IMG/VR virus record: IMGVR_UViG_2869924733_000001
Span: 1 to 10,216 of that record
Origin: a virus
Lineage: Duplodnaviria > Heunggongvirae > Uroviricota > Caudoviricetes
DNA length: 10,216 nt
Reading direction: 5' to 3' (one strand)
The notes beneath the pieces are model-generated. The model saw nothing but the letters and a program-made list of their open reading frames with translations, did not search any database and was not told where the DNA came from. Position numbers and translations under genes: made by a program. The stretch's first letter is position 1, and the number at the start of each line of letters is the position of its first letter. Of this stretch, positions 1-10,216 are shown in pieces.

Positions 1-291
1 TTACGTACGCAGCCGCTCCGGTTTTTTCCACTGGTAAGTCTTTTTCTCGCTCTCCCGGTACATCTCCACGCGGCGACGGTAGGCCAGCAACTCGAGTACT
101 CTGGTGCGTATATTGCGCATATCCACGCCGTTAAGCTCAATACCGTCACGGCGCATCACCTCAGCCACCACACGCGCATAGTTCTCAGCGATAACGCTGT
201 CCGGCTGCGTGGCCTCACGTTTGCCTGCTGCCGGGCTGGCTCCGGTAATGCGGCGAATCATTTTGAGCATTTCGGCTTCTGTCATTGTCAT
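1..291 (-). CDS. Hypothetical protein, last gene of the packaging-region operon in this window
   Basis: ORF 1..315 in track begins with TTG; first ATG at 291 has GGAGG 2 nt upstream, second ATG at 285 has 8-nt spacing. Stop codon occupies window positions 1-3. No Cys, basic C-terminus, no family recognised. Confidence 0.45.
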   Translation of the reverse strand: MTMTEAEMLKMIRRITGASPAAGKREATQPDSVIAENYARVVAEVMRRDGIELNGVDMRNIRTRVLELLAYRRRVEMYRESEKKTYQWKKPERLRT

Positions 292-336
292 GGCCTCCGT
301 GGTGATGGAAAACAATGCCGTAATTGTGGCGGGTCC

Positions 337-394
337 TTCCTGGAAAATGAAACACCGGGGGTAGCCATACGCGCAAAAACGCGCTGTTTATGAG
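337..394 (+). repeat. cos-like inverted repeat copy A (palindrome TTCCTGGAA plus 45-bp core GAAACACCG-N13-GCGCAAAAACGCGCT-GTTTATGA)
   Basis: Core at 349-393 matches copy B (1076-1120, opposite orientation) at 9/9 + 15/15 + 7/8 positions with identical spacing; palindrome at 337-345. Confidence 0.4.
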
Positions 395-463
395 ATTTTT
401 TGAGGGGGTGGTTGTTGTTTAATTGTTTGTTATATCCATTTGATAACTAAGAGAAAACTGAAA

Positions 464-560
464 GCAATACAACAACCTGAGGACGTTTTTTTGATGTTAT
501 GGTTCCCAAAATACCAATTAAATCAAATGGTTTAACAAAAATACGCGGTTGTTGTATTGC
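464..560. repeat. Perfect 14-bp inverted repeat GGTTGTTGTATTGC (464-477 inverted, 547-560 direct) flanking a 69-bp AT-rich spacer; related GGTTGTTGT at 410-418
   Basis: Read directly from sequence; lies immediately downstream of the Nu1-like gene stop (568); on the minus-strand RNA the stem would be followed by a U-rich run. Confidence 0.4.
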
Positions 561-567
561 ATACTTA

Positions 568-1008
568 TTAGCTTTCCTGCTCTGTAACTACAGATTGTTG
601 CAGATGCTCACGGCGAACGGCTACGGCATGACGCCACCCAGCCAGAAAGCCAGCCATTTTATTTCGTGCCTTGCTCACATCTTCCGGCGAGTAGCCGTAA
701 ATCTGCAGACCATTATCAAATCGCTGTTCTGTTTCTTCACTGAAATACTCGTCGCGCTCTGATGAAATCAACCTGGCAACCATAATCTTTTCCAGTGCGC
801 TGGTTTCTCCGTGGTACTCAATAGCATCAAGATGACTTTTACCCATGCACCAGAATAATGTGTGTCCGATGTGATAACCGCCGGACTTTCCGCGATCCGC
901 ATCAAGATACGGCATGCCCTGTTTGGTCCATGCGCGAATAGTGGTTCTGTTGACCTTGAAATGTTCTGCTATTTCCTGCTGACTAACAAAACAATCTTTA
1001 TTATTCAT
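568..1008 (-). CDS. Nu1-type small terminase-like winged-HTH DNA-packaging protein (candidate packaging-redirecting protein)
   Basis: N-terminus FVSQQEIAEHFKVNRTTIRAWTKQGMPYL aligns with lambda Nu1 VNKKQLADIFGASIRTIQNWQEQGMPVL (recalled reference); C-terminal half unlike Nu1; ATG at 1008 with AAGG 9 nt upstream; 146 aa. Confidence 0.65.
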   Translation of the reverse strand: MNNKDCFVSQQEIAEHFKVNRTTIRAWTKQGMPYLDADRGKSGGYHIGHTLFWCMGKSHLDAIEYHGETSALEKIMVARLISSERDEYFSEETEQRFDNGLQIYGYSPEDVSKARNKMAGFLAGWRHAVAVRREHLQQSVVTEQES

Positions 1009-1060
1009 AACGTTACCTTAATAATGCGATTAAATATTAATCAAGTGGTGGTGGTGTACC

Positions 1061-1120
1061 CTTTCCCGGAAAGCGTCATAAATAGCGCGTTTTTGCGCCG
1101 CTCCCGCCCCGCGGTGTTTC
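1061..1120 (-). other. cos-like site copy B: cosN-like GC-rich core, shared 45-bp core, and palindrome CTTTCCcGGAAAG (1061-1073), about 55-110 bp upstream of the Nu1-like start
   Basis: Minus-strand reading CGGGGCGGGAGCGGCGCAAAAACGCGCTATTTATGA matches my recollection of lambda cosN and adjacent bases (CGGGGCGGCGACCTCGCGGGTTTTCGCTATTTATGA) at about 24/36 positions with the same spacing, followed by TTTCCGG as in lambda. Confidence 0.45.
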
Positions 1121-1173
1121 TGATTCTGGAAAGGACCCGTGAAAATTGGGGCGATCACCACCGTTCCGGATAC

Positions 1174-1205
1174 AAAAAAATCGCGAGACCTTGCCAGCCT
1201 CGCGA
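1174..1205 (-). terminator. Rho-independent terminator after the capsid operon
   Basis: Minus-strand RNA: stem UCGCGAG(G) / (U)CUCGCGA with about 9-nt loop followed by U7 (plus-strand A7 at 1174-1180); 14 nt downstream of the 1219..1644 ORF stop. Confidence 0.6.
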
Positions 1206-1218
1206 ACGTTCATTTCAG

Positions 1219-1644
1219 TTACTTAACAGACAGCAACAGCTTTTCATCTTCGGTCAGTCCGGCGTTGCCATCACCGGCTGCTGATCCAACACATTTCGGG
1301 CTGTGCTTTTCCATGTACGCTTCAAACAGAAAAGCCGTTTTCTTTTCCTGCATCATTGCCTGGGCATCCACGGCAGCCAGTAACGTTTGTGCATAGGTTA
1401 CTGTCATTACTTCAGAACCACACTCAATCAGCTTACTGGTGAACTCAGGGTATTTTGATGCCAGCGGTAACGCCTTGATACCCTCTATGCGCTGTTTATC
1501 ACTCTCAGCCTTTGCAGTAAGCACCGTTCGGGCTTCTGTCAGTGATGCGCCATTATTTGCGAGATTTTCCGCAAGCGTCGGGTATTTCTGCGCCTCAGGC
1601 AGTGCCATGATCAATGCTCTGGTTGAATTTGCTTTCTCAGTCAT
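1219..1644 (-). CDS. Hypothetical protein with internal tandem repeat (about 32 aa: ALPxAxKYPxL...), in capsid operon
   Basis: ATG at 1644 with GGTGA 4-5 nt upstream; 14-nt gap after gpD-like stop; two similar segments ALPEAQKYPTLAENLANNGASL / ALPLASKYPEFTSKLIECGSEV. Confidence 0.55.
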   Translation of the reverse strand: MTEKANSTRALIMALPEAQKYPTLAENLANNGASLTEARTVLTAKAESDKQRIEGIKALPLASKYPEFTSKLIECGSEVMTVTYAQTLLAAVDAQAMMQEKKTAFLFEAYMEKHSPKCVGSAAGDGNAGLTEDEKLLLSVK

Positions 1645-1658
1645 AAATCACCACAAAA

Positions 1659-1988
1659 TTATTGCCCTAAAGGCTGCACGGAAATACCGGAACCAACAAA
1701 AGCCGACACTTTTTTCTCGAACGTGTCCGCTGTATCAGGCCAGTTAATTTCATCGATATTAAAAACCCCGCACTTATAAACCTGTGCGCGGTTTTTTGTG
1801 GCCGTGTTAATGTCCGATATGGTCAGATACACCGCCTTACCGGGTGTACCGTCCCACTCAACCATCAGGCCCGCGCCGTTCTGCATCAGCGGAGTTCTCG
1901 CTTTAATTTCTCTGGCACTGGCAAAACAGGCCAGCGTGCTGACCAGTTCCTGCGTGCCGGAAAGTAATTGCGTGTAAGGTGTTGGCAT
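1659..1988 (-). CDS. Head decoration protein, lambda gpD family
   Basis: 109 aa against lambda gpD 110 aa; conserved blocks TPLM, W-G-T, Y-K-x-G-x-F, WP, AF-x-G-x-IS at matching spacing (recalled lambda D sequence); AGGGGA RBS 6 nt upstream of ATG. Confidence 0.8.
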   Translation of the reverse strand: MPTPYTQLLSGTQELVSTLACFASAREIKARTPLMQNGAGLMVEWDGTPGKAVYLTISDINTATKNRAQVYKCGVFNIDEINWPDTADTFEKKVSAFVGSGISVQPLGQ

Positions 1989-1998
1989 ACGATCCCCT

Positions 1999-3054
1999 TT
2001 ATTTCACTTCGACGGTAACAAAGCGACCAATATCCACGGGTACTGGCTGCGGGGCGCTGTGCGTCTGCACGTATTCAATCGCCGGATCGCCCGGTACGAT
2101 ATAATTTTTCGGGTAGTACATCCCCTCAGAAAACCCCTCGCGTGCCGCGTCCTGATCCATGATGGCACCATAAGCAACAAGGCCTTTATTTTCGGTATTG
2201 CCGAAAACCATCATGTTTTGTTTCAGGAAATATTGCTGCTGCCCGTCTTCGTCGTCATAACGACCGGAATAAACCACGAGCGCCACATCACCGAGATACC
2301 CCTTGAAGCTGACAACACCGCCCAAATCTTTTAGCGCAAGTTCAAGTGACGAGTTTGAACCGCGGCGCGTGTCCAGGAGTTCGCGGAATCGACGGAACGA
2401 GCGCAAAATACGCCAGGCTTCGCCACCCATGACGATAATATTTACCGTACCTTTGGAAAAATCAGCGTAAGCCTCAATGTCGCTTATCGGATCAAACGTC
2501 TCGGCATCCTGTTTTGACCATTCTTTCCCGCCAGCCTGTGTAATGTGATTGGTTGCGGGTAATCCCCAGTCAATTTCATAACGCTCGATGCCTTCGCCTT
2601 CGATAACGTTCCTGCCTTTTGTGATGGCATTGACCGCCAGCCATTCAATACGTGCTTTGATGGCAGTGATCTGTTTTTTCTGGCTGTCGTGAACCATTTT
2701 TACGCGGCGTAGTGCCGGGGAAGACTGACCATTGCCGATCTGTTCTCCAGCCATGCGCATGATTGTTTTAGTGGGATCAATAACGTGTTTGGGCTTCATA
2801 TAACCCGGCGTGAAAGTGTTCGTTGTAAAACCTTTGTCACGCATAACCTGACTGCCTGACATTGGTGAACAAAACGGACTCATGACCACGTTTTCAATGT
2901 CCAGCGTATCAAGCGCAATATCTCGCGTACTGAACGTGGCGATATTCGGAAAAAACAGCGTCGTAAAGAGCGGATTAAATTTAAATTCCGGCACATCTTC
3001 GCGCCCGATATTTTTCAGTAGCGTTGGTGTGCTTACCAGTTGCAGCGCTGTCAT
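1999..3054 (-). CDS. Major capsid protein, lambda gpE family
   Basis: 351 aa; long collinear similarity to lambda gpE along the whole length (e.g. FKFNPLF, TFTPGYMKPKH, NHITQAGGKEWSKQDAETFDPISDIEAYA, LDTRRGSNSSLE, DVALVVYSG, YPKNYIVPGDPA, QTHSAP), roughly 45-50 percent identity by eye. Confidence 0.9.
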   Translation of the reverse strand: MTALQLVSTPTLLKNIGREDVPEFKFNPLFTTLFFPNIATFSTRDIALDTLDIENVVMSPFCSPMSGSQVMRDKGFTTNTFTPGYMKPKHVIDPTKTIMRMAGEQIGNGQSSPALRRVKMVHDSQKKQITAIKARIEWLAVNAITKGRNVIEGEGIERYEIDWGLPATNHITQAGGKEWSKQDAETFDPISDIEAYADFSKGTVNIIVMGGEAWRILRSFRRFRELLDTRRGSNSSLELALKDLGGVVSFKGYLGDVALVVYSGRYDDEDGQQQYFLKQNMMVFGNTENKGLVAYGAIMDQDAAREGFSEGMYYPKNYIVPGDPAIEYVQTHSAPQPVPVDIGRFVTVEVK

Positions 3055-3260
3055 TACTCACCCCCATGAGGCTGATTCATGCCAAGCGCAGCGCGTAAAT
3101 GACTGCGTACCATCCAGCCGACTGACGGCTTCACCATGCACAACGGATCAAGGCCGACTTTTTTCCCTGCCTCTGCGTTCTCCTCAAAGCGCGCATTAAG
3201 TGCGGCGATAATATCGGGGCTGATGTACACGGATACACCGCCCGGCTTCTGTGTTCCCAT
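3054..3260 (-). CDS. Small hypothetical protein (68 aa) upstream of and translationally coupled to the capsid gene
   Basis: ATG at 3260 preceded by GAGGAA at 9 nt; its TAA stop overlaps the gpE-like ATG (TAATG). Track ORF extends to ATG 3326, which lacks an RBS. Confidence 0.45.
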   Translation of the reverse strand: MGTQKPGGVSVYISPDIIAALNARFEENAEAGKKVGLDPLCMVKPSVGWMVRSHLRAALGMNQPHGGE

Positions 3261-3312
3261 AAATGAGATTCCTCTTTGACTAAAAAACAAACATAACGAA
3301 AAGTCAGCCATG

Positions 3313-3342
3313 ATTTTAATCATCATTGCATTTTTTGCAATG
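3313..3342 (-). promoter_or_regulatory. Candidate sigma70 promoter of the capsid operon with overlapping palindromes
   Basis: Minus strand: -35 TTGCAA (3335-3340), 16-bp spacer, -10 TAAAAT (3313-3318); -35 embedded in inverted repeats CATTGCA-N5-TGCAATG (3324-3342) and TTGCA-A-TGCAA (3335-3345). Confidence 0.35.
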
Positions 3343-3439
3343 CAATTGACTGTTATTGCAAATCATGAAATCATCATGCCGTGGTTTTAATCCTTGTACC
3401 ACAGAGTCATTCAGCATTAATCACGTTAGCGGTATGAAA

Positions 3440-3471
3440 TCCCCCGGAACCTCATCCCGGGGGATTTTTTT
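3440..3471 (+). terminator. Plus-strand intrinsic terminator hairpin (half of a bidirectional pair)
   Basis: 8-bp stem UCCCCCGG / CCGGGGGA, 9-nt loop, followed by T7 (3465-3471). Confidence 0.45.
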
Positions 3472-3475
3472 GCGC

Positions 3476-3503
3476 ACAAAAAAGCCGGGAAAAATCCCGG
3501 CTT
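3476..3503 (-). terminator. Minus-strand intrinsic terminator ending the replication/SSB operon
   Basis: 9-bp stem AAGCCGGGA / UCCCGGCUU with 4-nt loop, followed on the minus strand by UUUUGU; 15 nt downstream of the SSB stop. Confidence 0.55.
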
Positions 3504-3517
3504 CTGTCACTCGTTGC

Positions 3518-3940
3518 TTAAAACGATATGTTATCCCCGTACGGGGCATCATTTCCCGCCTGTTGTTTTGCCCTGTTCAGTGCGTCAGTAGCCTGGCCCT
3601 GCTGGCCTTTTTTGCCGCCCGGTCGCGCCGTTCGCGCACTGATTACGCTGTCTGCGATAACCTGCCAGCCCTGCCGCGTTTCGCCGTTCTGGCCTGTCCA
3701 CTGGCTTACCTGTATGTTACCCGCCACGCTCACCAGTTCGCCTTTGTGGTGTCTGGCCAGTGCGTCGGCCTGTCTGCCAAACGCCAGGACGGATAACCAC
3801 ATCGTCGCCGTTCCGTCATCGGCCTGGCTGCACGGCAGGGGAACCGCCATACTCGCCATCGCCATTTGTGTCCCTTTGCTGGTGGTCTTTAACTGCGGGT
3901 CAGCCACCAGCCGCCCGTAAGCCGCTATCTGTGCTGTCAT
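3518..3940 (-). CDS. ssb: Single-stranded DNA-binding protein (SSB-like, OB fold)
   Basis: N-terminal GRLVADPQLKTTSKGTQMA resembles the SSB motif; conserved W and G-x-V positions; Gly/Gln-rich linker; acidic C-terminal tip DAPYGDNISF comparable to DDDIPF of E. coli SSB; ATGA overlap with upstream ORF. Confidence 0.7.
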   Translation of the reverse strand: MTAQIAAYGRLVADPQLKTTSKGTQMAMASMAVPLPCSQADDGTATMWLSVLAFGRQADALARHHKGELVSVAGNIQVSQWTGQNGETRQGWQVIADSVISARTARPGGKKGQQGQATDALNRAKQQAGNDAPYGDNISF

Positions 3941-4188
3941 GCTGTCACCTCTCCGGTTTTAACGTTGATGGTTGTCACCTGTTCCGCTTCCGCAATTTCC
4001 CGCTCAGTCAGCGTGGCAAAGTTTGCCGCCGCCGTGGTCATGAATGCGCTTATCAGTTCGGGATGTGCTTTCGCGTATCCTTCCCCGGCATGGCGGTCTA
4101 TCGTTCTGATTGCCACCTTTAAGGCGCGCTCTGTCATGTCTAATGCGCGATATTTTGGCGCTGTCTTATCTCTGGTTTTTCTGGTCAT
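3937..4188 (-). CDS. Hypothetical protein (83 aa), first gene after the putative origin, coupled to ssb
   Basis: ATG at 4188 with GGGGAG 9 nt upstream; stop overlaps SSB start (ATGA). Confidence 0.5.
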   Translation of the reverse strand: MTRKTRDKTAPKYRALDMTERALKVAIRTIDRHAGEGYAKAHPELISAFMTTAAANFATLTEREIAEAEQVTTINVKTGEVTA

Positions 4189-4197
4189 TCCTCACTG

Positions 4198-4391
4198 CTC
4201 CCCACTTTTACTACCCACTTTTTGAAATTACCCAACGTCTCCCCACTTCTTTTTTTTGTGATTCTAACGTGATGTTTTTCAATGTATTTTTTATTCCCCA
4301 CTTTTTGGGGTATATACAGGTGAGAAAGTGGGGAATCGCGTTTCAATTTTGTTAAATTCCCCGCACTCCCCACTTTTACTACCCACTTTTT
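4198..4391. repeat. Iteron array, putative replication origin: 26-bp perfect direct repeat CTCCCCACTTTTACTACCCACTTTTT (4198-4223 and 4366-4391) plus further CCCACTT copies
   Basis: Seven copies of CCCACTT(T) (six direct, one inverted at 4327-4333) in about 195 bp; inverted pair CCCCACTTT / AAAGTGGGG flanks AT-rich GGTATATACAGG; immediately 3' of the replication protein gene. Confidence 0.5.
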
Positions 4392-5805
4392 ACAGTGGGC
4401 GCACGTCATCACCGTCAATAGCAATAACGCCATCACCTTCCAGCTTGTACAGCCAGCGCCGGAAGTGTTTCATCTCATACCCCAGCTTTTTCATATCATC
4501 GCGCAACAACGGAATTGTGCATTTATCGCCGCGCTGTGTGCGTGAACGGATACAGCCCCATAGCGCGGCATGATTCTCCGTCTTGTTCCCGGCTTCCTCG
4601 ATGCGCTCCAGTTCAACGGGTGGGCGCGGTTTATCCACAACCACCAGCGACGTGATTAACTCCCCGTCAGTGTCGGTAAAAAGCTCCACCACACGTAAAT
4701 CGTATGCAGCCTCTTTCAGTTCCTCCGCGTCCTTCATTTTGGTGCAGGAGATAACCAGGGCTTCACTGTCTGCACCTTCACGGCGAATACGGTATTCAGC
4801 GTCCAGAGATGCACGAAATGCACTGGAACCACGCGCTCCCTTTGTTTCATCCTTGCCGGAATGGTGAACCACCAGCACCGTGGACCCTGTGCGTCGTTTC
4901 AGTTCGTCACATCCACGGATAAACGCCCCCATATCCCGCGCGTCATTTTCATCATTACCGCCAAAACACCGCGCCAGCGTATCCAGAATAATCATGCGTA
5001 CCGGTTTACCCGTTTCCCTTTCAACCTGGCGGGAAGCGATGACCATTTCATCGACATCAAGCGGGACTGCCGGAAAAATCGGGCGGTTTACCAGGTACAG
5101 ATTTTCCACCCGTTTATCATTAACGATTTCCCATGCCTTGATACGGCGGGGGACACCAATGCCACCTTCACCGACAACATACATCACCGAACCATGCGCC
5201 ACCCTGCGGCCTCCCCAGTGGCGACCCGTGGCAACATGACACGCCCAGGAACACGCGAGGAACGATTTATAGGAACCGCTCGCGCCGTATGTGCTACACA
5301 ATGAATTAGCCGGAATCACGCCTTTAACGACATAATCAAGCTGTGTGTCGTACCCTGCAGATCCAATGCTCATTGGTAGCGTGGTTTTTCGCTGGCTGTA
5401 TTGCTCGTCAGTAAGAATTTCCCCGCGCTCTGCCTGTTCGCGGATCCGTTGCAGGTAGTCGTGCCAGTTCTCCAGCTTCTGGCTGTGCATTCCATCAGGG
5501 TAATAATTCGCATCCCGTACACCTGCCGCCGCCAGCTTTTGCCCGATAGCATTAATATTTGACGGCTTGATGTGGCCTGCCTTGTACAGCCGGACACAAT
5601 AGCGACCATCGTCGATAATTTTCAGGTCTGCCAGTTCGTCAAGCTGGCTGTCTCCAAGCCATACAGGCGGAACATTGTCGCCAGCAAGTCGCCCGTCCTG
5701 CTCCTGCCATTGTTTCGCGTGCGCCCAGGCATCACTACCCGCAAAAATAATGACTTCGGTCATTTTGTCGTGTGGCTGTTTTTTTAAGTTCGGTGCCAGT
5801 TTCAT
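4390..5805 (-). CDS. Replication protein: primase/helicase-type, RecA-fold (AAA_25 / RepA-like) ATPase with N-terminal toprim-like region and C-terminal putative DNA-binding region
   Basis: Walker A YGASGSYKSF, Walker B VRMIILDTLA, and LVVHHSGKDETKGARGSSAFRASLDAEY typical of RepA/DnaB-like helicases; ATG at 5805 with AGGGG 9 nt upstream; ATGA overlap with upstream ORF. Confidence 0.85.
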   Translation of the reverse strand: MKLAPNLKKQPHDKMTEVIIFAGSDAWAHAKQWQEQDGRLAGDNVPPVWLGDSQLDELADLKIIDDGRYCVRLYKAGHIKPSNINAIGQKLAAAGVRDANYYPDGMHSQKLENWHDYLQRIREQAERGEILTDEQYSQRKTTLPMSIGSAGYDTQLDYVVKGVIPANSLCSTYGASGSYKSFLACSWACHVATGRHWGGRRVAHGSVMYVVGEGGIGVPRRIKAWEIVNDKRVENLYLVNRPIFPAVPLDVDEMVIASRQVERETGKPVRMIILDTLARCFGGNDENDARDMGAFIRGCDELKRRTGSTVLVVHHSGKDETKGARGSSAFRASLDAEYRIRREGADSEALVISCTKMKDAEELKEAAYDLRVVELFTDTDGELITSLVVVDKPRPPVELERIEEAGNKTENHAALWGCIRSRTQRGDKCTIPLLRDDMKKLGYEMKHFRRWLYKLEGDGVIAIDGDDVRPL

Positions 5806-6101
5806 TTTGTGCCCCTGAATGCGTTAATCATGTTTTTCATTTTCTGAATATTTGCCCGTGCCTTTGCGTTGCTGGTGGGCTGTCTGCGTGGTGTGGCCTG
5901 TACCAGCGAAAAATCACGCCGGAACTGATAAACAGGCATCACGCAGTCATAGCCGTACCCATCACGGCGGTAAGTAACGCACCGTCCCGCCACGCTTTTA
6001 ATCGTTACCGTGCCGCCGTAGTTATCCCGGAAAATATCGCCGGGGCGGATTTCAGGCCGAGCGGGGCCGCTGGCAGTAAAGCCAGAATTTTTCTGTTTCA
6101 T
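5802..6101 (-). CDS. Hypothetical protein (99 aa), replication operon
   Basis: GAGGAA RBS 9 nt upstream of ATG 6101; stop overlaps primase start. Confidence 0.5.
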   Translation of the reverse strand: MKQKNSGFTASGPARPEIRPGDIFRDNYGGTVTIKSVAGRCVTYRRDGYGYDCVMPVYQFRRDFSLVQATPRRQPTSNAKARANIQKMKNMINAFRGTK

Positions 6102-6106
6102 GGTTT

Positions 6107-6316
6107 TTATTCCTCTGCGCGGGTCTTGTCGTGTATTTCCATAACCGCGTTTAATTCATCAATAACCGGGGTTAACAGAGTGCTGAAAGCAGAAAATAAA
6201 TCCCCCCCCTGTTCGGCATGAACTTCGGTTAATTTAATTAATACCGCTTTCATTTCCAGTGCCCGGTTTAATGCATTCTCAGAATGAATAAGAACATCGA
6301 AAGGGATTTCATTCAT
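6107..6316 (-). CDS. Hypothetical protein (69 aa), replication operon; contains a G8 tract
   Basis: GGAGG 9-10 nt upstream of ATG 6316; coding-strand G8 at 6202-6209 encodes QGGD. Confidence 0.5.
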   Translation of the reverse strand: MNEIPFDVLIHSENALNRALEMKAVLIKLTEVHAEQGGDLFSAFSTLLTPVIDELNAVMEIHDKTRAEE

Positions 6317-6569
6317 GGCTCACCACCTCCGGGAATTTTCTTCTGTAACGCGCCTCTGCAACATATTCCGCATAGTCCGACGCAATATTGAGAATCTCCG
6401 CACCCTCTGACCTGTAGCCACTGGTATTGATAAGAAAAAATGCGGCTTTTATCATGTCAGCAACGCCCAACAATGCGTCTGCTTCGTGTTCCGGTGCGCC
6501 ATCAAATTCCTGTTTCAGGGCATTAAAACGATCATCACGCATAACCCCCCCCATTTTCACAATCAGCAA
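6309..6569 (-). CDS. Hypothetical protein (up to 86 aa; start uncertain: 6569, 6554 or 6542)
   Basis: ORF from track; candidate starts overlap the end of the upstream Icd-like ORF and a G8 tract (6545-6552); 8-nt overlap with downstream ORF start. Confidence 0.4.
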   Translation of the reverse strand: MLIVKMGGVMRDDRFNALKQEFDGAPEHEADALLGVADMIKAAFFLINTSGYRSEGAEILNIASDYAEYVAEARYRRKFPEVVSHE

Positions 6570-6969
6570 TCAGAATGGCTTTGGCCTCATTCAGTGCCAT
6601 ATCAGCGGTAAGCTGTGCGTAGGCCAGCGAATGCGGGATTATTGCCCCTGTATATTCCGGCTCTCTGGTAATGTGTTTTTCTGCGGTTGCTGCCGTGTGT
6701 GAAATATCAATCAGCGCGCGCATCAGTGTTTTGATGGCTTCGGCGGCTGCGTCCGGACGGGTGTTATTGCACATGGTGCACCCCTGACGAATACGGGCGG
6801 CGAATACCATCACACAGCCATCAGGAGATTGCTGGCGTGCTTCCTGTTCGCTGGTGGCCTCAATGGTAATCACGCGCGGTTGTGCTGTGCTCAGGGCGAT
6901 AAAACGCCAGATGTATTTATTCAGGTTGTGCGAGTCCCGCCCTTGCGGGTGTGTGGTATGATTTCTCAT
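6535..6969 (-). CDS. Icd-like protein (P4-type host cell division inhibitor family, tentative), first gene of the leftward operon
   Basis: ATG at 6969 with GAGG 5 nt upstream; N-terminus MRNHTTHPQGRDSHNLNKYIWRF...FAARIRQG resembles Icd-like proteins of P4-type prophages (from memory); it is the 3' part of the spurious 476-aa track ORF. Confidence 0.45.
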   Translation of the reverse strand: MRNHTTHPQGRDSHNLNKYIWRFIALSTAQPRVITIEATSEQEARQQSPDGCVMVFAARIRQGCTMCNNTRPDAAAEAIKTLMRALIDISHTAATAEKHITREPEYTGAIIPHSLAYAQLTADMALNEAKAILIADCENGGGYA

Positions 6970-7064
6970 AGCTACCTCGATACTCTCGTTATCGTTGGTG
7001 GTTAGAAGCCCGTTGGTGTTGGTAGCACCTGCGGGCTTTGTCTTTTCATCGATTACCTCAATAA

Positions 7065-7148
7065 AGGTGTCAGCCACTATACTAGTAACAGGTGTCAGCC
7101 ACGTCAATAGTGTTTTTCCATTTTCTTGTGTGTATACTGTCAGCCACC
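7065..7148. promoter_or_regulatory. Divergent promoter/operator region with three copies of (A)GGTGTCAGCCAC
   Basis: Repeats at 7065-7077, 7090-7102 and 7137-7148; leftward promoter -35 TTGACG (7102-7107) / -10 TAGTAT (7079-7084), 17-bp spacer, with repeats in the spacer and at +1; rightward -10 TATACT (7133-7138) abutting repeat 3. Confidence 0.55.
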
Positions 7149-7168
7149 TAATAACAAGGAAATCAGAT

Positions 7169-7348
7169 ATGGCAACGAAAGCAGTTAATGGAAAATCCAA
7201 AAAACTTGAGGCACGAGTCCCCCATGCAATAGCTGACGCTGTAGAAAATTTAAAGGAAGAAGGTGAAAGCACTGGGCAATTTATCGTTTCGGCACTTGAA
7301 GGCGAGATCAAACGCCGCCAGCGTCGCAAGGCCAAAGAGCAGGAGTAA
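7169..7348 (+). CDS. Ribbon-helix-helix (CopG/Arc-like) DNA-binding protein, candidate repressor of the switch
   Basis: 59 aa; AAGGAA RBS 7 nt upstream of ATG; beta-strand KKLEARVP then two helices (HAIADAVENLKEEG, STGQFIVSALEGEI), basic tail; only convincing plus-strand gene. Confidence 0.6.
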   Translation: MATKAVNGKSKKLEARVPHAIADAVENLKEEGESTGQFIVSALEGEIKRRQRRKAKEQE

Positions 7349-7405
7349 CCATCACCAGCGCCGTGGTGTGAGTAACTACGGCGCATTGCTATGCAGGACA
7401 ACACA

Positions 7406-7558
7406 ATGACCGATAAAGAATTGACCAAAACATTATCACCGGCACGGAAAAGACGGCGCAGAAAGATAGAACATGAATCAGAAAGATTCGCGCCATGTGC
7501 TTTTGCCCTCGAGCAATTCCTTAAAGAGTACAGGGAAAAGCGCTCATTGCAGGTATGA
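7406..7558 (+). CDS. Small basic ORF (50 aa), possibly co-transcribed with the RHH gene
   Basis: ATG 7406 with AGGA 7 nt upstream; protein MTDKELTKTLSPARKRRRRK...; below the track length cut-off; followed by a plus-strand terminator about 100 nt downstream. Confidence 0.3.
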   Translation: MTDKELTKTLSPARKRRRRKIEHESERFAPCAFALEQFLKEYREKRSLQV

Positions 7559-7658
7559 CAACGAACTGAACCAGACTGATTGCATTGCCCACCAGCCGCA
7601 AATGTGGCATTGTTGGCGATGCTCATGCGTTGGGGATAACGCGAAATTTGTGTCGCAG

Positions 7659-7686
7659 GGCCACCGTGACTGGTGGCCTTTTCTTT
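7659..7686 (+). terminator. Plus-strand intrinsic terminator (end of RHH / small ORF transcript)
   Basis: 7-bp GC-rich stem GGCCACC / GGTGGCC, 6-nt loop, followed by TTTTCTTT. Confidence 0.55.
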
Positions 7687-7739
7687 ACCTGTTATCCGGC
7701 AATAGTGGCGCTTCTTCACACAGTTGATATAATTCCCCT

Positions 7740-7810
7740 GCACTGATCCAATTTTTTCGCAGCAGGTTAATTGTTCGCAAGGGCGCTCCGGTAACGGGGC
7801 GCTTTTTGTT
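7740..7810 (+). ncRNA. Candidate small RNA (about 70 nt) between a consensus extended -10 promoter and an intrinsic terminator, convergent with alpA
   Basis: TGaTATAAT at 7725-7733 (-10 hexamer matches consensus 6/6); terminator stem GCGCTCCG / CGGGGCGC with GTAA loop (7783-7802) plus TTTTTGTT (7803-7810); no ORF in between. Confidence 0.35.
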
Positions 7811-7828
7811 ATGTGCATCGCTCCCCCC

Positions 7829-8041
7829 TTACGCCGTTTGCGTCCTGCGAGTGGATGCAAGATAAGCATCGAGATCAGAGCGCATATACAGCACTTTGCG
7901 CCCCAGCTTATGGAAAGGGATTTTTTCTTTACCAGTACACGCCCAGTTAGCAAGAGTCTGGACACTTACCCCCAAATGCTCGGCGGCTTCTTTGCGGGTC
8001 ATTTTTTCTTGAGAATTGATTACGTTCACAAGTAACTCCAC
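7829..8041 (-). CDS. alpA: AlpA / excisionase-family HTH DNA-binding protein
   Basis: MTRKEAAEHLGVSVQTLANW...KIPFHKLGRKVLYMRSDLDAYL matches the excisionase/AlpA HTH pattern; track start is GTG 8041 (AGGT RBS), alternative ATG at 8002. Confidence 0.75.
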   Translation of the reverse strand: MELLVNVINSQEKMTRKEAAEHLGVSVQTLANWACTGKEKIPFHKLGRKVLYMRSDLDAYLASTRRTQTA

Positions 8042-8112
8042 GTATTACCTATTGTTACCGTGAGCTACTTTAGTTTTTTGCTGTGGGGGCGGTAAGGTGA
8101 AAAGCTGATTTT

Positions 8113-8161
8113 CCCAGGGGAAAGCAGGTAAGCCAGGGGAATAGCTGCTTTTACCCTGGCT
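8113..8161. promoter_or_regulatory. Direct repeats CCAGGGGAA(A/T)AGC(A/T)G (8114-8128, 8133-8147) with two mutually exclusive hairpins, between the AT-rich gene and alpA
   Basis: Stem A AAAGCAG / CTGCTTT (about 8120-8149) and stem B AGCCAGGG / CCCTGGCT (8131-8161) overlap, so only one can form. Confidence 0.3.
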
Positions 8162-8174
8162 GATAAAAAATTTT

Positions 8175-8795
8175 TTATGCGTACTCTGGCGGGATCACCA
8201 GTTCTGAGTTTTTGTACTTTTTGTCAGGTGGTGGCGGCGGGGCTAGTTTTTCACTTTTTATCCAGCACTTGATTGTTTCCTCGCTTATCCGGCCCTCATA
8301 TCGACGCGACAGCTTCGCAATCATTTTTGTTTTGGATAGTGCTGGTTCTTTCTTCCATGTGGCTTTCATGATGGCGACTATCTCATCATGTAAATAGTGG
8401 CGGGGACCGGAGGCGGCTTCACTTCTTCTTCTTTTGATAACACCATCAGATATTAATCTAATAACTTTGCCACCACCTTTTGAGGCTATACAGGCTCTTT
8501 TGTATACCCATGAAAGATCCTCAGCAGTATTTTTATATCCAAGTAGCTCTAGTATTAAGATGGATTTCAGAAATACATTAGCACTATGACCTATGTTTAT
8601 CTCCCCTGTTTTGTCTAACGCTAAATATCCTTCCTTATCAATCCTTGCTGCTATTCTTTTCCTTTCTGCTTTTCTATAATATTTAAATTTATCTTTCAAT
8701 TCATACACATGCTCGCTCATTTCCTTTTCGACTTGCTCAAGATAATCATATAATTCAATTCTTGTATCATCATCCACTACATCCCAAACTTTCAT
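8175..8795 (-). CDS. Hypothetical protein (206 aa), AT-rich 5' half, translationally coupled to the integrase; candidate accessory/cargo gene
   Basis: ATG at 8795 overlaps the integrase TGA (ATGA); codons for about the first 110 aa lie in visibly AT-rich DNA (8460-8795) while the 3' half is of ordinary composition; proline run PPPPP near C-terminus; no family recognised. Confidence 0.6.
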   Translation of the reverse strand: MKVWDVVDDDTRIELYDYLEQVEKEMSEHVYELKDKFKYYRKAERKRIAARIDKEGYLALDKTGEINIGHSANVFLKSILILELLGYKNTAEDLSWVYKRACIASKGGGKVIRLISDGVIKRRRSEAASGPRHYLHDEIVAIMKATWKKEPALSKTKMIAKLSRRYEGRISEETIKCWIKSEKLAPPPPPDKKYKNSELVIPPEYA

Positions 8796-10216
8796 TTAGA
8801 CGATACCTCTAAATTTTTGTTTATGATTTTGAAAATTAATTGGCGTTTTTCATCATCACTCATGCTCTCCAGTGCAGAAAGCAATTGCGCATCAATAGAT
8901 TTTTTACTCTCCACCAGCCCGGCATGTTCCAGAATTGCCCGTTCTATCCGTGACGCTGGCTCCAGCAGTTCATCAGCACCAAAATGTAAATACCCCTGCG
9001 TTACGTCAGCACTTCTCATAGTGCGGTGATTCATCAGGCGCTTGAGGGTGTAATTACCCACGCCCACCAGTTCGGCAACCGTTCCGAACGTCCGGCGCGC
9101 ATCGTGCCATTTGAATGGTACAGGGGAGAGCATTTCATCGTTCGACTCTGGGACGGTAGCCGCGCTTATCCGGTCTATGATGTGCCGTGTTTCCTGAATC
9201 ACTCCCTTTGCTCCAGGAAACACCAGTACATCATCAGCGTTTTTTATTTTCAGCCTGCGGCGGAACATTTCCCGCAACGTATCGGTGATCGGTAGCTCGA
9301 GCGGATCCCCGTTTTTCGTGGTATCTATCCAGAAAAAACGACCGCCCATATTCACGCGATCCCACGTAAGGCCAAAAATTTCTGATTTTCTCAGTCCGGT
9401 AAAAAGTGCCATTTCCACGGCATCACATACCGTCACCGCTATATCATCCCTTTCCTGTTCGCCCTGGTCACGTACAGCAGCTACAGCAGCAAACCAGCGG
9501 GGAAAATCATGCAGGCGGATACGTTCCGTTTTTCTTACCGTTCCGTGCCACTGTCGTTTGGTACTCAGTACCAGCGTCGGCGGATCCGGTAAAAGAGTAT
9601 TACCCGCATCATCACGGTAATGATCATGCGCAAACCGACACACGGCACGCAGCGCACGCGCCCATAAATCGGCCTGTGCCTTGCTTCCTGTGCCAACCCC
9701 AGCCCGTAACGTGGTTTTATCAGCACCGAACCATACAGCCCCGTTTGTGACAGCCTTATGCCGCTGTTCCACCCGTTCGCGGGTAATACTGGCGAGGGTA
9801 TGGGCCATCCAGTCACCGGAATAATTCTGTAATATGCTGCGGTACTGTTTTTCTGTGGCGGGTTTCAGGCGGTGGCCACGATTTTTTATGTAGGCTTCAA
9901 GCGCCTCATTCAGCGTTATCATGGCCTTGTTGTTCGTGCGCTTCGCTATGTTCGGGTTTTTCCCCGTTGTGGCGACCTCTCCAAGGAGTTCCATAGCTTT
10001 AGCCCTGGCATTGTCCACACTCAGATCGGGAAAACGCCCCAGCGTTGCACGAATAAATTTTCCGTTACGCTTACGGGAAATGCAGAAACTTTTCACACCA
10101 GACGAACCCACACGGACACGCAGCCCGTTAACCTCCGTATCACCATATTCGACCTGTCCATGTTCCGGCGTTGGCAGTTCTGCAATTTTTACTTTAGAGA
10201 ATCTGAATAATTTCAC
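8792..10216 (-). CDS. int: Tyrosine recombinase / integrase (P4-type, N-terminal arm-binding domain); 5' end at window edge
   Basis: N-terminal arm-type domain (KIAELPTPEHG...GLRVRVGSSGVKSF...RATLGRFPDLSVDNARAKA); catalytic-domain motifs LRKSE, HDARRT, NHRT...GYLH; ORF starts with GTG at the last window base, so the true start may lie beyond. Confidence 0.9.
   Translation of the reverse strand: MKLFRFSKVKIAELPTPEHGQVEYGDTEVNGLRVRVGSSGVKSFCISRKRNGKFIRATLGRFPDLSVDNARAKAMELLGEVATTGKNPNIAKRTNNKAMITLNEALEAYIKNRGHRLKPATEKQYRSILQNYSGDWMAHTLASITRERVEQRHKAVTNGAVWFGADKTTLRAGVGTGSKAQADLWARALRAVCRFAHDHYRDDAGNTLLPDPPTLVLSTKRQWHGTVRKTERIRLHDFPRWFAAVAAVRDQGEQERDDIAVTVCDAVEMALFTGLRKSEIFGLTWDRVNMGGRFFWIDTTKNGDPLELPITDTLREMFRRRLKIKNADDVLVFPGAKGVIQETRHIIDRISAATVPESNDEMLSPVPFKWHDARRTFGTVAELVGVGNYTLKRLMNHRTMRSADVTQGYLHFGADELLEPASRIERAILEHAGLVESKKSIDAQLLSALESMSDDEKRQLIFKIINKNLEVSSK

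Follow-up and report, generated by a model that had tools for sequence, protein, structure and literature searches.

Convergent cos sites across rpp in an EcCICFT073-family island: an Rpp-type site and a predicted phage cos of another terminase class

Why do some phage-inducible chromosomal islands (PICIs) have two cohesive-end (cos) sites? This question, open in 2019, is raised again by a 10,216-nucleotide stretch of IMG/VR record IMGVR_UViG_2869924733_000001 (positions 1 to 10,216; the whole stretch is called the window). The window is a PICI of the EcCICFT073 family carrying an RppB-type rpp gene, and the region considered here is a DNA-packaging module in which two cos sites face each other across rpp. 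Sites named cos1 and cos2 have been described for EcCICFT073 (Fillol-Salom 2018, ISME J, PMC6092414; 2019, Mol Cell, PMC6739421). The core finding is already published for this island family, and the window adds a member with a different cosN type; among the literature searched, cos2 of EcCICFT073 is mentioned only in these two papers. New here are the apparent identity of cos2, which aligns as an intact phage cos of a distinct terminase small subunit (TerS) class, and a testable account of the two-cos design. We consider it probable that the two sites form one Rpp-type PICI module, in which cos1 is read by Rpp and cos2 is a helper cos used without Rpp by phages of one particular class, TerS_d.

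Two inverted cos-like copies flanking a Nu1-like gene had been predicted from the sequence, and a repeat search recovers them as arms at 317–393 and 1076–1152 (77 nt, 74% complementary; 57/77 identical in an ungapped count). The 45-bp core of that prediction, 349–393 against the reverse complement of 1076–1120, is identical at 36 of 45 positions without gaps, and a longer comparison of 331–393 (plus strand) with the reverse complement of 1076–1138 gives 48/63. The chance of the latter anywhere in the window is ~1e-9 (binomial probability multiplied by all pairwise positions). Identity is uneven, with 43/51 in the flanks and 5/12 in the central 12 nt. Both copies align with a lambda-like cosQ-cosN block when compared with lambda and other lambdoid cos regions, and in both the cosQ block GGGTCCT lies about 30 bp upstream of the predicted cohesive end. 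The core and cohesive-end positions were placed by alignment to lambda only. In copy A (cosQ-cosN part 331..393, plus strand), GGGTCCT occupies 331–337, the predicted 12-nt cohesive-end core GGTAGCCATACG 360–371, and the right flank, CGCAAAAACG followed by CGCTGTTTATGA, 372–393. In copy B (1076..1138, minus strand), GGGTCCT is at 1138–1132, the predicted core GGGCGGGAGCGG at 1109–1098, and the right flank, CGCAAAAACG followed by CGCTATTTATGA, at 1097–1076. Positions in bp take the first core base as bp 1, at window position 360 for copy A and 1109 (minus strand) for copy B.

The resemblance of copy B to lambda, put at about 24 of 36 positions in the original prediction, is 22/36 by count over bp 1–36 of NC_001416, including an exact CGCTATTTATGA; over the 22 bp after the core it is 15/22, again with CGCTATTTATGA intact. 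A further match that the prediction had missed is that of window positions 1140–1128 to the lambda cosQ block ACGGGTCCTTTCC, which is perfect (13/13), with the spacing off by 1 bp. The predicted cores differ from that of lambda, GGGCGGCGACCT, with identities of 7/12 for copy B and 5/12 for copy A, values that depend on a placement by alignment only and on a core that varies widely in the window's cosN type, here called type 2. Two TTCC-N-GGAA palindromes had also been noted beside the copies and are indeed present, TTCCTGGAA at 337–345, between cosQ and cosN of copy A, and CTTTCCCGGAAAG at 1061–1073, which is bp 37–49, downstream of the cosN of copy B.

By sequence comparison, the gene between the two copies is an Rpp homolog. 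This gene (rpp, 568..1008, minus strand) encodes a 146-aa protein with a TerS-like winged helix-turn-helix N-terminal domain and a C-terminal part that corresponds to the dimerisation part of Rpp proteins. It matches crystallised RppC (PDB 6HLK/6HN7) over residues 1–135 (E=1.5e-33), shares 84% identity with RppA of E. coli CFT073, and has a weak match to the terminase small subunit family phrog_57. Its N-terminus, MNNKDCF, and its length of 146 aa are the values given for RppB (PMC6739421, PMC9026076).

By position and sequence against Fig. S1A of PMC6739421, copy B corresponds to the published cos1 and copy A to cos2. Copy B lies directly upstream of rpp with cosQ, cosN and an island-type cosB, the last extending from cosN to the rpp ATG (1009..1075, minus strand). 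The ATG at 1008 falls at bp 102, the same value quoted for PICI-C (PMC9026076). A single candidate R site is apparent in this cosB, ACCACCACC at 1055–1047 on the minus strand (bp 55–63). This is the position of the proposed R3-PICI of Murialdo & Feiss 2022, who place a single such site at bp 48–65 of cos1 with bp 55–63 invariant, and whose analysis leaves cos2 unmentioned (PMC9026076); N15 likewise has a single proposed R site (PMC9026076). Further downstream, the conserved TTGATTAATATTTAAT block holds a 15-bp inverted repeat, GATTAAATATTAATC, at 1028–1042 (bp 68–82). This repeat was correctly predicted and is kept across islands; its supposed overlap with a promoter gained no support, as a simple sigma-70 scan finds no promoter-like site there. 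The sequence GACACCACCACCACTTGATTAA(T/C)ATTTAA is essentially invariant in 27 aligned islands, including one with a 70%-identical Rpp. In published cosB swaps, RppA stimulated only constructs with the cos1 cosB, and the RppA-TerS complex recognises this cosB; judging from the primers, the swapped fragment reached into the 5' part of rppA (PMC6739421). The cos1 cosB of the window is probably recognised by Rpp-TerS in the same manner, through the single R3-like ACCACCACC.

Copy A differs in its cosB (394..560, plus strand), which has three candidate R sites at fixed distances from cosN. The nonamer GGTTGTTGT occurs there as an R3-like repeat at 410–418 (bp 51–59, plus), an R2-like repeat at 469–477 (bp 110–118, minus) and an R1-like repeat at 547–555 (bp 188–196, plus). 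These are its only three occurrences in the window; 0.10 are expected, and none of 200 shuffles reached three. Lambda has CGTTTCC at 53–59 (plus), 114–120 (minus) and 155–161 (plus); the +,−,+ arrangement is shared, whereas the repeat sequences are unrelated. A 14-nt perfect inverted repeat, 464–477/547–560, was considered as the stem of an rpp terminator and rejected: its arms are the R2- and R1-like repeats, found at the same offsets in phage cos sites.

The whole of 331–560 aligns with phage contigs L055, L057, L061, L078, L083 and L090. Copy A is identical at 49 of 52 positions in 394–445 and, against L055, at 131/167 (78%) over the entire cosB, with the three GGTTGTTGT repeats at identical offsets. 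The homology ends at the start of the phage terS gene, which lies at bp 211 in the phage; in the window, bp 209–211 are the complement of the rpp stop codon. Phage contigs with this cosB continue into a 174-aa terS of the Phage_Nu1 family (TerS_d, 35% identical to lambda Nu1) and then into terL and portal genes. On this evidence, copy A is a second cos site downstream of rpp, convergent with the first as in CFT073. By its sequence it is a complete phage cos, with cosQ, cosN and a cosB of three repeats, that belongs to a different TerS specificity class rather than an Rpp site. Islands with near-identical Rpp N-terminal regions have different cosB sequences at cos2; together with the cosB-swap result, this argues that copy A is not an Rpp target. 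The proposal of lambda-type cos sites with an element-specific cosB, as described for Rpp, therefore holds for copy B and fails for copy A, which had been taken as a second target of the same protein.

Relatives of these sites were sought in two collections. BLAST of window positions 1–1500 against 50,697 GenBank phages returned one record, SerU-LTIIb; short queries added vB_EcoM-705R4 and two weak short matches to Pseudomonas phages, which were disregarded. The GGTTGTTGT-type cosB is present in no phage among the 50,697 and was found only in IMG/VR contigs. A pattern scan of IMG/VR for the cosN context of the window retrieved about 55 phage contigs of 20–47 kb. These contigs, vB_EcoM-705R4 and SerU-LTIIb share the type-2 cosQ-spacer-cosN flanks with the window and have a variable 12-nt core. 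In type-2 phages terS and terL come after the site; copy A of the island borders on the 3' end of rpp, with the two in opposite orientations.

The closest described relative, EcCICFT073 (L004:2931-13655), has the same order of capsid-like gene, gpD-like gene, small gene, cos1, rpp, inverted cos2 and last gene, and a near-identical cos1 cosB with ACCACCACC at bp 55–63. The two islands differ in three respects. First, the cosN context in both copies of the window is AAACACCGNG, 12 nt, CGCAAAAAC, while that of EcCICFT073 is GTTACG, GGGCGGCGACCT, CGCGGGTTTT. Second, the two 12-nt cores of the window differ from each other. Third, the cos2 cosB belongs to the GGTTGTTGT class in the window and to the ATGTCCGG class in EcCICFT073, where ATGTCCGG occurs three times at bp 51 (plus), 110 (minus) and 140 (minus). 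That cosB aligns, with identical offsets, with contigs L031, L049, L080, L092 and L093 up to the start of a different terS (TerS_c). The lambdoid prophage next to icd in CFT073 was considered as its source and rejected, having 21-type repeats (CGTGTCGG...) and a 21-type TerS. Functionally, both EcCICFT073 sites have cosQ and cosN and neither has the lambda or phi80 cosB; cos1 is needed for transfer, deletion of both sites abolishes the residual transfer left after cos1 deletion, and cloned cos2 confers phage-mediated plasmid transfer, working weakly with lambda and phi80 (PMC6092414, PMC6739421).

The relation between the two sites was followed across islands and phages by IMG/VR pattern scans and a classification of all cos sites, de-duplicated by contig. 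Twenty-four Rpp islands were found, and a convergent pair is present in each of the 23 with enough flanking sequence. A convergent cos2, here with a third class of phage cosB, is also present in the island that encodes the crystallised RppC (L293). Across these elements the cosB of cos1 is near-invariant, while that of cos2 falls into classes, each matching a class of phage TerS DNA-binding domain. At least three classes are seen (GGTTGTTGT, ATGTCCGG and CACTYCCGG), none of which matches the motifs of lambda or 21, the two phages covered by the comparison. In all 23 contigs with an Rpp-type cosB, rpp comes next. Downstream of a type-d cosB lies TerS_d in 43 phage contigs, and 12 islands have such a cosB facing rpp; for type c the corresponding counts are at least 62 phage contigs with TerS_c and at least 11 islands. 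TerS_c and TerS_d, both of the Phage_Nu1 family, share their C-terminal two-thirds and have unrelated N-terminal DNA-binding domains. The cosQ/cosN type is the same in both copies of every island, lambda-type in 21 and type 2 in 10 including the window; the type-2 islands are close relatives, and their shared type may reflect few evolutionary events. TerL, the terminase large subunit, tracks the cosN type regardless of TerS class (89–100% identity within type 2, ~80% to phages with lambda-type cosN). The sequence homologies, the convergent geometry and the conservation of the cos pair throughout the family are direct observations on these contigs.

A further nine PICI-like contigs lack rpp and have two convergent phage cos sites, one of type c and one of type d (L096, L104, L111, L116, L128, L132, L144, L156 and L159; for example L104:9296-9897). 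They are mostly 6–12 kb long and keep the major capsid protein, gpD-like, single-stranded DNA-binding protein (SSB), RepA-like and last-gene homologs; all that remains of rpp is its 3' end, in the ~470 bp that separate the ATGTCCGG-class site from the GGTTGTTGT-class site. At L029:1368-1431, a 59.8-kb contig has a 70%-identical Rpp homolog and an Rpp-type cos1, and no cos2 was found within 1.5 kb downstream.

These relations suggest how the module may work. The helper TerL would read the cosQ and cosN of cos1, and an Rpp-TerS heterodimer its island-specific cosB; packaging from cos1 would run into rpp and then around the concatemer. The second site would have been copied from lambdoid phages with the Nu1-family TerS_d, cut off just before the start of terS. 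TerS_d is predicted to recognise the GGTTGTTGT repeats, and phages with TerS_d and a type-2 TerL could package the island from cos2, independently of Rpp and in the opposite direction, giving it a second helper range. Since the cosQ/cosN of both copies is of type 2, which goes with a single TerL lineage, either could be cut by the same large terminase. In lambda an inverted cos is not known to be used for termination, and the convergent orientation would keep packaging begun at cos1 from ending 0.75 kb later at cos2. Lambda-like termination needs cosQ, cosN and I2 and is indifferent to cosB specificity (PMC4669245), so a cos2 in direct repeat could end a run begun at cos1; termination there would delete or duplicate rpp. 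In the staphylococcal islands SaPIbov5 and SaPIbov4, compared by description, the satellite likewise carries its helper's own cos for packaging by the helper terminase, and two putative cos sites have been reported for SaPIbov4. Those islands differ in phage family and in cos, and have no Rpp-type specificity switch.

A more general form of this proposal is that the islands carry two interchangeable packaging adapters. One, cos1, would serve helpers whose TerS can be captured by Rpp, and the other, a stolen intact cos, would serve other classes; cosQ and cosN would pair modularly with TerL and cosB with TerS, the adapters would be renewed by recombination, and some islands would have dispensed with rpp in favour of two stolen cos sites. 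We regard the case for this general form as evenly balanced.

Several points weigh against this account. Deletion of cos2 raised the transfer of EcCICFT073 with lambda and phi80 helpers (PMC6092414, PMC6739421), a measured cost set against a benefit that we infer; this cost would fit wasteful cutting at cos2 in the absence of the matching TerS. An island and a phage contig of the matching class were seen together in just 3 of 26 IMG/VR isolate genomes, a lower bound from incomplete sampling that is not counted as support. The cos1 core GGGCGGGAGCGG is unique among the collected sites and departs from the usual ...ACG ending of type-2 cos. No integration host factor (IHF) consensus WATCAANNNNTTR was found in 394–560, a further difference from lambda, where such a site (I1) lies between R3 and R2; this region is AT-rich and may hold a degenerate site. 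Finally, the partly degenerate cosN of cos2 in L293 shows that cos2 can decay. At L293:2070-2131, the right flank of the cos2 cosN reads CGCAATTCTTAACTG instead of CGCAAAAACGCGCTG and the spacing is one base shorter, so this may be a decaying site; in the cos1 of the same island, a left flank of lambda type is combined with a right flank of type 2.

Some of these points would suit a cos2 that is a passive relic of a phage cos, left at the junction of an earlier recombination with a helper phage, nearly neutral and without a role in transfer. The gain in transfer by lambda or phi80 on its deletion is consistent with such a relic, as are the partly degenerate site of the RppC island and the signs of recombination between phages and islands at this locus, namely a chimeric gene in contig L131 and cohesive-end cores common to phages. 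A costly relic, however, should be lost, and cos2 is present in all 24 islands with enough flank (the 23 above and L293), always convergent and complete to the last repeat. Its cosQ/cosN type is always that of cos1, and in the rpp-less islands two phage-type cos sites are all that is left for packaging. The occurrence of at least three phage cosB classes in the same slot also points to repeated replacement rather than to one frozen accident. We therefore judge a relic unlikely, and retain the use of cos2 by TerS_d-class helpers as the preferred explanation.

Reproducing the phage recognition sequence faithfully on a high-copy replicating island, cos2 might instead act mainly as a decoy that takes up or diverts the terminase of the matching class and lowers phage yield. 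PICIs are selected to interfere with their helpers, and a decoy can coexist with a packaging role; but a terminase that starts at cos2 on a concatemer also packages the island, two functions that sequence cannot separate. Interference as the main role of cos2 seems to us decidedly improbable. That both copies are targets of the island winged helix-turn-helix protein, with the TTCC-N-GGAA palindromes as R sites, is barely credible and was rejected: both palindromes exist and Rpp has a TerS-like DNA-binding domain, but their positions are not equivalent, one palindrome preceding cosN and the other following it, EcCICFT073 lacks the palindrome of copy B and has TTTTTCCGTGAAGG at those positions, the cos2 cosB varies among islands with near-identical Rpp N-terminal regions, and RppA stimulated only constructs with the cos1 cosB. 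As to an invertible segment or a cruciform, rpp has a single orientation with respect to its cos1 cosB at every locus.

If the two-adapter account is true, it would answer the 2019 question of why some PICIs have two cos sites: the second cos, a burden with lambda and phi80 as helpers, may be native to another class of helper phage and so widen the helper range. The survey also indicates a lambdoid packaging specificity that is more varied and more modular than the three documented classes, with one pairing between TerS domain and cosB and another between TerL and cosN. A 2015 account documents only the lambda, 21 and N15 packaging specificities (PMC4669245), and TerS_c and TerS_d look, from their sequences, like additional ones. 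It is also plausible that the cos sequence alone could predict which prophages mobilise a given virulence-carrying island.

The survey yielded further observations on cos variation and exchange. The 12-nt core of type-2 sites is hypervariable, with 19 variants in 41 IMG/VR sites (L031-L094 and L287-L292 examined), while the core of lambda-type sites is GGGCGGCGACCT in 158 of 165. Ten near-identical E. coli islands have five cos1 cores and three cos2 cores, and never the same core in both copies. Variation in type 2 extends into the left half of the core, for which selection has been reported in lambda-like phages (PMC4669245). Several of the island cores also occur unchanged in phages, pointing to exchange between islands and phages at cos. 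At L131:1155-1851, a phage-type cos is followed by a terS_c::rpp chimera consisting of the first terS codons (VATQTEVA...) and the C-terminal part of rpp; on its sequence, this gene is direct evidence of recombination between phage and island at the rpp/cos locus. In a 10.3-kb contig, L036, two type-2 cos sites point the same way at a distance of 2.4 kb (6024-6053 and 8472-8501); they have the same core, GGTCCGAATACC, and different cosB sequences, and the contig may represent another kind of multi-cos satellite.

The remainder of the window has the backbone of a PICI, with an integrase at one end, an AlpA-like regulator, a replication initiator and genes in one direction, as in islands of about 10–12 kb. 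All genes named here lie on the minus strand. A tyrosine integrase (Phage_integrase and Arm-DNA-bind_3 domains; 8792-10216) marks one end of the island and is followed by an AlpA-like HTH_17 protein (7829-8041), a DUF4222 protein, a RepA-type AAA_25 helicase as replication initiator (4390-5805) and an SSB (3518-3940). The capsid module (1219-3054) comprises a lambda gpE-like major capsid protein (1999-3054), a gpD-like decoration protein (1659-1988) and a 141-aa protein that matches the C-terminal end of the head maturation protease/scaffold family phrog_53. No phenotype has been reported for the capsid and decoration homologs of EcCICFT073, which is packaged in full-size heads. Helper-dependent induction, packaging, transfer and TerS-binding interference are published only for EcCICFT073 and for cloned rppA, rppB and rppC.

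A consensus scan places a terminator-like hairpin with a T-run at 1181..1205 (minus strand), between the 141-aa capsid-module gene and cos1; its position just upstream of the cos1 cosQ suggests that rpp is transcribed apart from the capsid-like genes. Downstream of cos2, the small last island gene (1..292, minus strand) matches phrog_1561 (E=1e-48), and homologs occupy the same position in CFT073, in E. coli VG35A2 and in the rpp-less islands. The copy in VG35A2, 97% identical to the window, lies between thiM and rcnR, and this small gene is the last of the island there.

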